A stretch of DNA of 64,000 bases. Source: an uncultured cyanobacterium. GTDB taxonomy: Bacteria > Cyanobacteriota > Cyanobacteriia > Cyanobacteriales > CAWCAG01. The stretch lies in contig CAWDOD010000005.1 of NCBI GenBank assembly GCA_963803805.1, positions 32,001 to 96,000 of the forward strand, read 5' to 3'. The notes under the pieces were generated by a model that was not told where the DNA came from, did not search any database, and was given only the letters and a program-made list of their open reading frames with translations. Position numbers and translations under genes: made by a program. Shown piece after piece: positions 43,973 to 47,450 of this stretch; positions within the stretch are counted from its first letter, which is position 1; each line of letters opens with the position of its first letter.

Positions 43973-45052
43973 ATGAAAATCGATTACGTTCACTTCTATG
44001 TTGATAATGCTCAGAAGTGGCGAGACTGGTTTAGCACTAAGATGAACTTTTCTACCGTAGCTGGGGGTTATAACCATCACGATTGTACAGAAGTAATCGC
44101 TAATGGGAACGTTGTCTTTGTTCTTTCTTCTCCCACTAATGCGGCTAGCCTAGTAGCAAAATATTTACGACAACATCCTTGTGGAGTAGCGGATGTTGCC
44201 TTCACTACCAACAATTTAGCCGAAGCATTACAACAAGCTATTAACCAAGGGACAAAATTATTAACCGCACCTCAACAGCAAAATTTTCCTCAAGGAACTA
44301 TAAAATGGTGTCAAATTGTCGCTGAATCTGGCTTACGTCATACTTTATACCAAAGAGAAGGTATAACTCCTATTTTTCCAGAATTAGAAAAAGAGCAAAT
44401 CTATCCAACTAATTTTGCTCAAGGAAACTTCACTGGTATAGATCATATTGTCCTCAATGTGGCAGCAGGAGAATTAAGAAAAACCGCAACTTGGTACGAG
44501 AAAGCTTTAGGTTTTCAGCTCCAGCAAAGTTTTAATATTCAAACAGAAAATTCGGGTTTATATTCTCAAGTGATGGTACATCCAGAAAGCGGTGTAAAAT
44601 TTCCCATAAACGAACCTGCTTCTCCTAATTCTCAGATTCAGGAATTTTTAGATGTAAACAAAGGTGCAGGTATTCAACATATCGCTTTGCAAACTCCCCA
44701 TATCCTCCGTACCACTGCCCAATTAAGAGAAGCAGGGTTAGCTTTTTTACCTATTCTAGAAAGTTATTATACTCAACTAGAAAAACGTCTCCCTCCTTTG
44801 AGTTTAGAAGCAGGGGAGTTAGCAACTTTGGCAGCACAACAGATTTTAATCGACTATCAACAAAAAACTAATAATATTAAAAAATCGCCCTTGTTGTTGC
44901 AAATTTTTACTCAACCAATTTTCAACGAACCTACTTTCTTTTTTGAGTTAATTGAACGTCGCGATCGCGCTGAAGGTTTTGGAGAAGGAAACTTTCGTGC
45001 TTTGTTTGAAGCAATGGAACAAGAACAATTTAAGCGAGGGAGTTTGTACTGA
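43973..45052 (+). CDS. hppD: 4-hydroxyphenylpyruvate dioxygenase
   Basis: IDHIV, GIQHIAL, LLQIFT, FFELIER, GFGEGNF. Confidence 0.95.
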   Translation: MKIDYVHFYVDNAQKWRDWFSTKMNFSTVAGGYNHHDCTEVIANGNVVFVLSSPTNAASLVAKYLRQHPCGVADVAFTTNNLAEALQQAINQGTKLLTAPQQQNFPQGTIKWCQIVAESGLRHTLYQREGITPIFPELEKEQIYPTNFAQGNFTGIDHIVLNVAAGELRKTATWYEKALGFQLQQSFNIQTENSGLYSQVMVHPESGVKFPINEPASPNSQIQEFLDVNKGAGIQHIALQTPHILRTTAQLREAGLAFLPILESYYTQLEKRLPPLSLEAGELATLAAQQILIDYQQKTNNIKKSPLLLQIFTQPIFNEPTFFFELIERRDRAEGFGEGNFRALFEAMEQEQFKRGSLY

Positions 45053-45099
45053 TAGCTAATAACTTAAACCATTTTTAAAATAATTTCTTATATAGCAAG

Positions 45100-45627
45100 A
45101 TGAAAATTATGAATAAATATCAAAACAAAATGGAAACATTAGACCCCTGGCAAGTGGTAGAAACATCAAAAAAACTTACTATCGAAGACATTCTTTCTTT
45201 AGAGAAAGAAATAGGCTATTCTTTGCCAGCAGACTATGCTAACTTCCTTTTGCACTATGGTGGTTTTGGTACTGAAGATTATGTTAGCTTTACCTATCTA
45301 GAAGAAAATCCTAGAGATGATGAAAAAGGATTATTAGATGTATTTTTTGGAATTTTGCCAGGAGATGGATACGATTTAATAAAGAATTACAATTGTTATA
45401 AAGATAGAATTCCTCAAAATTTACTTCCTATCGCAGACTCATGTGGAAATGTTGTCTGTATTTCTCTTGCCGGTGATAATAAAGATTGTGTTTATCTGTG
45501 GGATCATAACGATGAAGAAATGGTAGAAAATCCGGGCTATTCAAATGTCTATCTACTCGCTCATTCATTTGATGAGTTTATCAATTCTTTAGAATTAGAT
45601 GATGAATTGAATGATGAAGATGAATAA
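45100..45627 (+). CDS. SMI1/KNR4 (SUKH) immunity-family protein, orphan
   Basis: LEKEIGYSLPADYANFL, LLPIADSCGN, VYLWDH, LAHSFDEFI. Confidence 0.85.
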   Translation: MKIMNKYQNKMETLDPWQVVETSKKLTIEDILSLEKEIGYSLPADYANFLLHYGGFGTEDYVSFTYLEENPRDDEKGLLDVFFGILPGDGYDLIKNYNCYKDRIPQNLLPIADSCGNVVCISLAGDNKDCVYLWDHNDEEMVENPGYSNVYLLAHSFDEFINSLELDDELNDEDE

Positions 45628-45629
45628 AA

Positions 45630-45691
45630 AAGCTTTAAATTTGTTGATGTGCAACTAATCCTCAATTGCTTTCAAAACTCCTAACTCTGTT
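45630..45691 (-). repeat. Diverged copy of the comB 3' end plus downstream flank
   Basis: Matches 46697-46758. Encodes [11 protein letters not shown] versus [11 protein letters not shown]. Confidence 0.88.
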
Positions 45692-45903
45692 ATCAACAGA
45701 AAATTAATAATAATAACAAATTACCCTTGTTGCAAATTTTCACTCAACCAGTTTTCAACGAACCCACCTTCTTTTTTGAGTTAATTGAACGTCGCGATCG
45801 CACTGAAGGTTTCGGCGAAGGAAACTTTCGTGCTTTGTTTGAAGCAATGGAACAAGAACAATTTAAGCGAGGGAGTTTGTATTAATAGCTAATAACTTAA
45901 ACC
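45691..45903 (+). repeat. Diverged copy of the hppD 3' end plus downstream flank
   Basis: Matches 44855-45070. Encodes [22 protein letters not shown]...KRGSLY*, with many synonymous differences. Confidence 0.92.
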
Positions 45904-45905
45904 CT

Positions 45906-46250
45906 TTATGAAGCTACGGCAAAATCTGTGTACTGTCTCATTTTTGGCTCATGAAATGCTAAAACAATATCTTCTTTAGAAACACCTGCATCAACCAAAT
46001 CATTGGCGATGCCATCTTCAGTCCAATCCTCCTCGATCCAAAATTTACCATCTACAATCCGAACATAGACTGTCATACCAGCAACGCGCTCACCACCCTG
46101 CCAACCAAGATTCATCCAAATGTAATGAGCTTTTAATTCATCGACAATTAAAAACGTCTCTATATCTGAGTTATGATGGCGGTTACTTAGTTCTGTATAC
46201 TCACTCAAAATACCTTTAATTAGCTTAGGATATTCAGTTAGTTTATCCAT
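45906..46250 (-). CDS. xisI: XisI family protein
   Basis: MDKL..Y, GW, KFWIEEDWTEDGIA, KEDIVLAFH.P..RQYTDFAV. Confidence 0.9.
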   Translation of the reverse strand: MDKLTEYPKLIKGILSEYTELSNRHHNSDIETFLIVDELKAHYIWMNLGWQGGERVAGMTVYVRIVDGKFWIEEDWTEDGIANDLVDAGVSKEDIVLAFHEPKMRQYTDFAVAS

Positions 46251-46654
46251 TTTGTGATCTCCTCTGACTCGATGTCTACCACAATGATAGAAAGTTGGTG
46301 TTTCTTCAGAATGAGTTGAGCCACATCTCCGGTAAAGAAAGTTTTGTAAGCTATTTTGCTGATAGCCATATATAACTTTCGCTCTGGTGCTGTTTCCTCC
46401 AAAAGATAACTGTAGATATCATATTGCCCAAGAGCTTCTTTAAAGTCCTGTATTTTCGATGCACCAATAAAGCTTTTGACTTCCACAACTAGCTTTTGTC
46501 CATCTCGTTCAACCCCAATCGGACGTTCAGCACCAAGATCAGCATAGAGTGTTGTCCTTCGATACTTAATGATATAAGGATCATCAGTGATTAACCATCC
46601 GTCCTTAATCAAAGCATTTTTCACCGAATTATGAATACTATCTAGCTTGGGCAT
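46238..46654 (-). CDS. xisH: XisH family protein
   Basis: HNSVKNALIKDGWLITDDP, DLGAE, VEVKSF, ALGQY. Confidence 0.9.
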   Translation of the reverse strand: MPKLDSIHNSVKNALIKDGWLITDDPYIIKYRRTTLYADLGAERPIGVERDGQKLVVEVKSFIGASKIQDFKEALGQYDIYSYLLEETAPERKLYMAISKIAYKTFFTGDVAQLILKKHQLSIIVVDIESEEITKWIN

Positions 46655-46721
46655 CAACTACTAGAAAAAAATGATATCTGTATAAACATAGGAATGAAGC
46701 TTCAAATTTGTTGATGTACAA

Positions 46722-47450
46722 CTAACCTCTAATTGCTTTTAAAACCCCTAATTCTGTTTGTATTGGTAAAACATCTAAAATATTCTCTTGAGCGCAATAT
46801 TCTAAATCTGCTCGATTATTTAAACCTAATAAACGCTTACCATGACTAGCAAGTTCAAACATTTTCACTAAATCATTTTGCCATTGGCTATAAAGGGCGA
46901 TCGCTGCTACAACTTCATCATTACCAATAACTTCTACATCTTTAGTATAAAAAACTTTGGCGATCGCTCCCGCACAAACTGTATCTTCTAAGGAATAAGT
47001 TCCTTGCCAGCCAGATCCCACTAACCAAACAGTTTCTGGTTGTTTCTTACGTAGGTAATCAATGACACTTTGGTAATTTACCATTGCGGCTGTCACCACA
47101 GTGGGAGATTTTTCTACCCTTTGTAAGGCACGAGTACCATTAGTAGTAGAAAGAAACAAACGCTTACCTGCCATCAATTCTGGGGTACAGTCCAAAGGAG
47201 AATTACCTAAGTCGCAACCATCTACTTGTTTACCTCCTCTTTCTCCTGCCCGTAGTCGCTTTTGGTCAGGCCAATCAGTACTTTTAGTTATTAATTCTTC
47301 TATATCTCTAAAAGCTTGTACTGCTTCAGCTCCAGCGTCTAAAGCGGTGGCGATGGTAGTTGTTGCCCGTAATACATCAATGACGACTGCACAGTCAGGT
47401 AAGCTGTCTATTGGAGTCAATTCTGGGGTGTGATAAACAAATAGCTTCAA
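46722..47450 (-). CDS. comB: 2-phosphosulfolactate phosphatase family
   Basis: [31 protein letters not shown] start inferred. Confidence 0.9.

Follow-up and report, generated by a model that had tools for sequence, protein, structure and literature searches.

How can two unrelated sets of genes come to lie next to each other between the same pair of core genes, each set enclosed by the ends of both? We asked this of a locus in a 64,000-nucleotide stretch of DNA from an uncultured cyanobacterium (contig CAWDOD010000005.1 of assembly GCA_963803805.1, positions 32,001 to 96,000 of the forward strand), which we call the window and in which positions are counted from the first nucleotide. The locus is bounded by two convergent genes, hppD, for 4-hydroxyphenylpyruvate dioxygenase, and comB, for a protein of the 2-phosphosulfolactate phosphatase family. 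Between them, the order of units is an SMI1/KNR4 (SUKH-1) gene, a copy of the comB tail, a copy of the hppD tail, xisI and xisH. An earlier reading of the same letters (the original prediction) had taken this order as two alleles of one variable slot fused in tandem, and the gene order, coordinates and repeats that it gave were all reproduced by our list of open reading frames (ORFs), our repeat search and our alignments. The explanation that we favour, and to which we give an even chance of being right, is that a single illegitimate joint connects two diverged alleles of the slot, probably by way of a circularised fragment bearing the SMI1 gene and a single crossover.

The left border of the locus is formed by hppD (43973-45052, + strand), a full-length gene of 359 aa with a TGA stop that matches TIGR01263 at 329 bits (cut-off 277) as well as the Pfam Glyoxalase domains. 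Its final 65 codons, the stop and 18 nt of 3' flank (44855-45070, +) make up the reference copy of the hppD tail, as delimited by repeat search and alignment. The first cargo gene (45100-45627, +) has the orientation of hppD, starts 47 nt past the hppD stop and encodes an SMI1/KNR4 protein of 175 aa; residues 26-162 match PF09346 at 78 bits, against a gathering cut-off of 25.4, and PF14568 and PF14567 match too. It is followed by a truncated copy of the comB 3' end (45630-45691, -), consisting of 25 nt of flank, a TAG stop and 11 codons, whose 62 nt are 85% identical to 46697-46758, with 9 mismatches. This fragment abuts, at position 45691, a truncated copy of the hppD tail (45691-45903, +), with 64 codons, a TAA stop and 18 nt of flank, recognized by the same repeat search and alignment. 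The second cargo consists of xisI (45906-46250, -; 114 aa; PF08869, 143 bits) and xisH (46238-46657, -; 139 aa from a TTG start, with an ATG one codon further in; PF08814, 182 bits), and the identity of the two genes follows from these neighbouring PF08814 and PF08869 matches. They overlap by 13 nt and lie downstream of comB in the same orientation. The interval closes with the reference copy of the comB tail (46697-46758, -; repeat search and alignment), which comprises 25 nt of flank, a TAG stop and 11 codons plus 1 nt, and with comB itself (46722-47477, -), a full-length gene of 251 aa that matches PF04029 at 288 bits and NF002056 at 417 bits (cut-off 323). Between the same flanks, therefore, SMI1 fills approximately 45071-45629 in one unit and xisI-xisH approximately 45904-46696 in the other.

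Both tails are thus present twice. The hppD copy (213 nt) is in direct orientation and the two hppD tails are overall ~93% identical. Their alignment falls into a block of 186 nt (44894-45079 against 45727-45912, 94% identical) and a block of 42 nt (44855-44896 against 45691-45732, 86% identical), split by a 3-nt TTG indel within a TTGTTGTTG run that leaves the copy one TTG short of the full gene (64 vs 65 codons). The indel is a slippage event. The similarity continues beyond the coding sequences, with 18 of 19 nt identical past the hppD stop and 23 of 25 past the comB stop. The swap of stop codons and the in-frame 3-bp indel listed in the original prediction are both present, TGA in the full hppD being replaced by TAA in the copy that has lost the TTG; both comB tails end in TAG. 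These repeats are not due to chance, because only 5 families of direct repeats of at least 40 nt exist in the whole window, and two of them are the hppD-tail and comB-tail repeats. The repeat search found no repeat between the cargo interiors (45072-45629 and 45904-46696). A simple tandem duplication is ruled out, as the interiors of the two units are unrelated (SMI1/KNR4 in one, XisI and XisH in the other).

At 45691 the similarity stops abruptly in both directions, and pairwise alignments leave a single T common to the two copies, so that the microhomology of about 1 bp proposed for this junction amounts to exactly 1 nt. The mismatches nearest to the joint lie 6 nt to its left and 8 nt to its right. 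The anatomy of the locus, the abruptness of the joint and the divergence reaching up to it are direct observations. An ORF fused across the joint was considered and is ruled out by in-frame stops upstream of the hppD-tail copy. Uninterrupted identity extends over at most 14 nt in the 62-nt comB copy, and over blocks of 65 and 33 nt in the hppD tails. The 65-nt block (44984-45048 vs 45817-45881) is a perfect match in tails whose synonymous sites elsewhere differ at ~22%. It is not statistically separable from chance (rough estimate, P ~0.05-0.07), and it might mark the site of a homologous crossover or a later gene conversion between the copies.

Direct head-to-tail repetition of both arms around a single new joint is characteristic of Campbell-type integration or of a tandem duplication. 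According to the explanation that we favour, the gap between hppD and comB had two alleles, one with SMI1/KNR4 behind hppD and the other with xisH-xisI behind comB. A double-stranded fragment of ~836 bp (45691 minus 44855) from a related lineage, spanning hppD from codon 295, SMI1 and the end of comB to 11 codons into that gene, would have entered the cell. Its ends would have been joined into a circle, the end-join being what is now the joint at 45691, and the circle would then have integrated by a single homologous crossover in the 213-nt hppD tail of the chromosome carrying xisHI. Such an event would leave both full-length genes intact, with two dead fragments at the joint. A linear substrate undergoing homology-facilitated illegitimate recombination (HFIR), anchored further upstream in hppD, would give an equal product, and the two routes are not separable here.

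Features of the two units bear on the order of events and on their roles. Since mismatches occur within 6 and 8 nt of the joint, the divergence of ~7% in the hppD tail and 15% in the comB tail must have preceded the joint. The same mismatches, together with a longest identity of 14 nt in the comB copy, make a later homologous replacement ending in that copy implausible. We take the SMI1 unit as the incoming one because the hppD tails share blocks of 65 and 33 nt sufficient for a crossover and the comB tails do not; the lower GC content of this unit (0.31-0.32, vs 0.40 for the window) agrees weakly with that assignment. The foreign origin of the fragment, its passage through a circle and the identity of the incoming unit are what we infer from these features, and this structural argument for the origin is stronger than the argument from substitutions given below.

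Known systems offer partial parallels, and the underlying mechanisms have already been described in other bacteria, so that the locus is a new natural example, a single one, in an unusual setting. The closest is the integration of re-circularised fragments. A conjugation assay that used a plasmid in E. coli is reported to have given 60 recombinants, of which 56 carried duplications of 109-950 bp of the homologous arm, ascribed to re-circularisation of a partly degraded molecule followed by a single crossover (Amarir-Bouhram et al. 2011, PMC3240628). As in the cases outlined there, an arm is duplicated at our locus (213 nt), the joint has little homology and no site-specific recombinase is needed; a homologous segment occurs twice in direct orientation around an insert, and a novel joint links what would be the ends of the donor fragment. 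The setting differs, as the assay concerned a laboratory plasmid in E. coli and we describe a natural locus on a cyanobacterial chromosome. In addition, the donor would here have been homeologous, with repeats ~7-15% diverged at the start, and a second arm (comB, 62 nt) is duplicated as well.

HFIR, which was the mechanism suggested in the original prediction, resembles the locus in that a homologous anchor and one illegitimate end let foreign DNA be incorporated independently of any integrase (de Vries & Wackernagel 2002, Prudhomme et al. 2002 and Meier & Wackernagel 2003, as summarised in PMC3240628, PMC2884548 and PMC5361080). The homologous arm and the illegitimate joint can both be recognized here, and locating the crossover itself needs a reference allele. 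In its classical form, as summarised in PMC3240628, HFIR deletes about as much DNA as it inserts, and most of its joints show microhomologies of 3-10 bp. Our locus shows instead a net duplication of both arms, no visible deletion and two full-length genes. Its single nucleotide of homology falls below the usual range, which is not disqualifying given that, of the four true HFIR joints reported from E. coli in that study, three had 0 nt and one had 1 nt of homology. Of the proposed HFIR-like stacking of two slot alleles, one joint nearly free of homology and alleles that were already diverged are supported; the loss typical of classical HFIR is not seen, as the arms were duplicated and nothing is visibly missing.

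Two other comparisons concern the outcome more than the route. In Vibrio cholerae, arrays of orphan immunity genes of the type VI secretion system are described as arising by sequential displacement, a process likened to the displacement of C-terminal modules in Rhs and contact-dependent inhibition (CDI) proteins (Kirchberger et al. 2017, PMC5361080). As in the account given there, which proposes an HFIR-like event free of integrases, a new module would have been placed behind a conserved upstream gene, with the old cargo kept and pushed along; one of the cargoes belongs to an immunity-type family (SUKH-1), and the hppD tail fragment at 45691-45903 is retained ahead of the displaced cargo. The V. 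cholerae arrays differ in being tied to toxins or effectors and a secretion system, neither of which is found here. Moreover, the anchors at our locus are metabolic and convergent genes (hppD and comB), there are only two units, and the second cargo, the XisH/XisI pair, is of another kind than an immunity gene. Small dimorphic variable segments between conserved flanks, for which homology-assisted illegitimate recombination has been proposed (Touzain et al. 2010, PMC2884548), are similar in that two unrelated short segments occupy one position of the backbone. As described in that work, the alternative states reside in separate genomes, whereas here both stand side by side in one molecule. No such event was described for cyanobacteria in the titles and abstract openings covered by a limited literature search.

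A profile scan of 59 ORFs (48 + 11), all of at least 90 aa apart from a ParE-like pair described below, detected no integrase domain. The original prediction had stated that no integrase or insertion sequence (IS) is nearby, and this was borne out, transposase domains being detected among the scanned ORFs only at 4626-8101, ~37 kb off. That cluster, which contains the only mobile-element genes detected in the window, comprises an IS66 transposase ORF (418 aa), one of ISL3 (243 aa, with partial profile coverage) and one of DDE_Tnp_1_3, IS4-like (303 aa). A search of the whole window against Rfam returned one tRNA only (29380-29455), far from the locus, and no repeats other than the gene tails border the cargo. 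Insertion of the cargo as an integron or other site-specific cassette is ruled out by the lack of an integrase among the ORFs scanned and of attachment repeats.

The differences between the tails were also analysed by the Nei-Gojobori method, which counts 8 synonymous and 6 non-synonymous changes for hppD and 4 and 3, respectively, for comB. As the 21 changes thus comprise 12 that are synonymous and 9 that are not, calling them largely synonymous was an overstatement. Even so, pN/pS is 0.18 for both tails combined, and neutral evolution on both copies is rejected, with P from 0.0004 (kappa 1) to 0.019 (kappa 8); transitions outnumber transversions 18:3. In the nine conserved comB codons TELGVLKAI there are three synonymous changes and no non-synonymous one, and the peptide is kept in a homologue that is 89% identical (P0122). 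The synonymous excess is real and suggestive of divergence under selection; by itself it does not settle the origin.

Comparison with relatives bears on where the second allele may have come from. A scan of genome contigs yielded 21 hppD loci that are 43-52% identical and a partial one at 60%, and we probed their flanks by tblastn with comB, SMI1, XisH, XisI, the ParE-like pair and the gene for a cNMP (cyclic nucleotide)-binding protein located next to hppD in the window. None of comB, SMI1 and xisH was found within the retrieved flanks, and the only other matches were an XisI-like sequence ~10 kb upstream in one locus (L004) and guaA in another (L014). At the protein level, the nearest hppD homologues are 81%, 79% and 79% identical, the last being partial, and the nearest comB homologue is 89% identical, with the C-terminus KAISISIE. 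The SMI1 search returned 9 proteins at E <= 0.001, the window's own included, the nearest relative being 81% identical. The alleles of the tail copies are absent from the nearest hppD, comB and SMI1 proteins. Besides the window's own, no hppD of more than 81% identity was found among the matches of 197-629 aa. Provided that the other contigs of the source genome are in the collection, this speaks against a second, paralogous locus as the donor; it also implies an unsampled donor lineage. Some of these relatives show breaks or deviations of their own near the 3' end of hppD: one hppD (P0004) is cut at residue 260 by a contig end, another (P0003) ends in ...KRGEVCLNC and not in ...KRGSLY, and the 81%-identical SMI1 homologue (P0242) is on a contig of 807 bp. 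These are weak hints that the region could be repeated or variable there too.

Several observations weigh against an exchange of slot alleles through a circularised fragment. The joint rests on one assembled contig, no second genome among those compared carries it, and the window contains at least 4 frameshifts in conserved genes, so that the assembly may contain errors. Among the relatives compared, whose hppD loci are 43-52% identical apart from the partial one at 60%, there is no sign of the donor lineage or of an allele with a single cargo. In natural transformation DNA enters the cell as a single strand, so that a double-stranded circle is less readily expected. The 3-nt indel, lying in a run of TTG triplets, is in frame by construction and is therefore no evidence of selection. 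Furthermore, when the hppD tails were compared with 5 full-length homologues (the sixth, P0004, ends before the tail), all three unambiguously derived changes were on the fragment, namely T>I, PLLLQIF->PLLQIF and RAEGF->RTEGF, and the full-gene tail retains the conserved states at those positions. This suggests either that some decay followed the event or that the donor allele was an odd one. With the observed transition bias, decay confined to the fragment is likewise not rejected (P = 0.15 at kappa 4 and 0.24 at kappa 8). The synonymous excess therefore does not prove the functional alleles that the original prediction preferred over a decayed duplicate: neutrality on both copies is rejected, but decay of the fragment alone fits at kappa 4-8.

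These last results are those that a tandem duplication in place would also produce. In that scenario the interval would have been duplicated in a single lineage, with a later swap of cargo in one of the units and slow divergence of the dead fragments. The head-to-tail topology with one joint is expected from it, the derived changes at conserved residues do sit in the hppD fragment, and a model with one copy neutral and the other at omega 0.1 is the one not rejected under strong transition bias. We nevertheless regard it as unlikely, as it requires two rare events, and the swap of the left cargo would need a right-hand crossover confined to the final bases of an arm of 62 nt with a longest identity of 14 nt and mismatches 6 nt from the joint. 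It also asks that non-functional DNA diverge by 7-15% without acquiring a frameshift, a stop or a deletion, and fresh identical tandem repeats are unstable. An artefact of assembly, in which the consensus took in a chimeric long read, or two contigs or haplotypes of co-occurring relatives were joined with no gap between them, seems improbable to us as well. The source contig (146,666 bp) is represented once and the joint has no independent support, the frameshifts indicate that the sequence is error-prone or heavily pseudogenised, and the proteins of relatives come here from short or broken contigs, as the truncated P0004 and the 807-bp contig of P0242 illustrate. Against this, the raw sequence has no Ns at the joint, and the full-length genes are intact with only internal fragments truncated, as would be the case in a viable recombinant. 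A de Bruijn graph should be unable to make a joint with an overlap of 1 nt, and a mis-traversed strain bubble should leave a minimum of k-1 identical bases at either end of the repeated parts, where only 6 and 8 are seen. Were the frameshifts long-read errors, single reads would span the 836-bp unit many times over.

Exchange inside a single cell leads to the same product as integration of a circularised fragment. If a polyploid cell were transiently heterozygous for the slot, an unequal illegitimate exchange between its chromosome copies could create the fusion, and selection for both cassettes could fix it. Many cyanobacteria have multiple chromosome copies. A benefit from keeping both cassettes is conceivable, considering that XisH is placed in a nuclease superfamily in the source cited below (PMC3424549) and that SUKH is an immunity-type family. 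We hold this to be decidedly unlikely: neither the ploidy or heterozygosity of this organism nor addiction to the cassettes has supporting evidence, PADLOC gave no match for XisH, XisI or the ParE-like pair and a weak one for SMI1 (E = 0.003, to PDC-M40A), and homologous import followed by illegitimate exchange is one step longer than direct integration. A more speculative proposal, and in our view a very remote one, makes XisH-XisI a homing element whose nuclease would break rival slot alleles. Repair against another chromosome copy would then stack the cassettes, the 3' gaps of convergent genes would serve as integrase-free docking slots, the joint would be a repair scar, and the heterozygosity of the polyploid cell would be resolved by tandem fusion instead of segregation.

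The cargo genes themselves give some indication of function. SMI1/KNR4 (SUKH-1) is an immunity-type family according to its Pfam description, which would make the first cargo a putative immunity gene. Among the ORFs scanned no toxin gene adjoins SMI1, and the same scan detected no Rhs, VgrG, CdiA or toxin domain and no secretion-system genes (the ParE-like pair is treated separately below). Membership of the locus in a polymorphic-toxin system is ruled out on this basis. As for the second cargo, XisH is listed under the PD-(D/E)XK nuclease superfamily (PMC3424549), and a genome paper citing Hwang et al. 2014 describes xisHI as probably supplying an endonuclease together with a recombination directionality factor for XisF, and as present without xisF in several filamentous bacteria (PMC4853749). 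No XisF-like large serine recombinase was detected in the ORFs scanned. XisH-XisI pairs are present on 39 cyanobacterial plasmid records, all of them less than 60% identical to the pair in the window.

Each cargo lies directly downstream of a core gene and is co-oriented with it, with no terminator-like hairpin between them, which suggests expression by read-through: SMI1 would probably be read through from hppD, and xisH-xisI from comB. Over 43200-47700, promoter-like sites number 12, against 13.4 expected, and terminator-like sites 2, against 2.7 expected, neither of the latter being at a gene end. When folded as RNA, none of the four conserved flanks was more stable than shuffled sequences.

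If the joint is real, one molecule keeps both alternative alleles of the slot together with the scar of their fusion. This would be direct evidence, from a single genome, that small cassettes of the immunity and nuclease-partner types travel between strains on the ends of adjacent core genes, that they can accumulate without any integrase, and that orphan SUKH-type genes may land far from toxin loci. The locus would also be a natural case of the duplication-producing outcome (circularised fragment plus crossover) that outnumbered classical HFIR in the laboratory.

The genes surrounding the locus present further features. The neighbouring genes are hppD and comB themselves, guaA and those for a Ser/Thr kinase and a cNMP-binding/ZIP protein. 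Between the cNMP-binding/ZIP gene and hppD, at 43279-43775 (-), sits an ORF with a ParE-like toxin domain (89 aa, PF24732) and an upstream partner of 76 aa without a Pfam match, the two overlapping by 4 nt. Small accessory cassettes are thus found on either side of hppD, and no duplication of tails surrounds the ParE-like pair. On the other side, guaA (47580-49208, -) has a +1 shift near 48978, caused by an extra C in GGT-C-GGA, and a -1 shift near 48833 in a GGGGGAAAG run. The breaks are ~145 nt apart, and the stretch between them, which includes the GVCYGMQ active-site region, is in another frame. As guaA encodes GMP synthase and is normally essential, this reflects either sequencing error or a pseudogene.

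Other conserved genes of the window are interrupted in a similar manner. An M3 oligopeptidase is split at a C-run (56200-56260) into a TOP_N ORF (55554-56246) and a Peptidase_M3 ORF (56375-57640), and a nucleotidyltransferase/phosphomannomutase pair (33153-34409 and 34372-35682) overlaps by 38 nt around 34370-34400. An SNF2-type helicase divided into ORFs of 169 and 909 aa (11260-11380) is a probable fifth frameshift. Counting guaA, this corresponds to about one break per 11-16 kb. The GC content of the window is 40%, and there are 29 HIP1 octamers per 64 kb. Two repeats lie outside the locus. The stretches 51313-51900 and 54701-55288 are diverged direct repeats, 72-76% identical and 3388 nt apart, that correspond to a receiver plus cyclase module, present in a 416-aa response regulator-cyclase and at the C-terminus of the neighbouring 1109-aa hybrid kinase, which looks like paralogy at the level of domains between neighbouring genes. 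Finally, two tandem copies of 46 nt, 87% identical and with a period of 48, occur at 27038-27131 within an ORF of 309 aa (26403-27332) that has a weak match to HTH_38.

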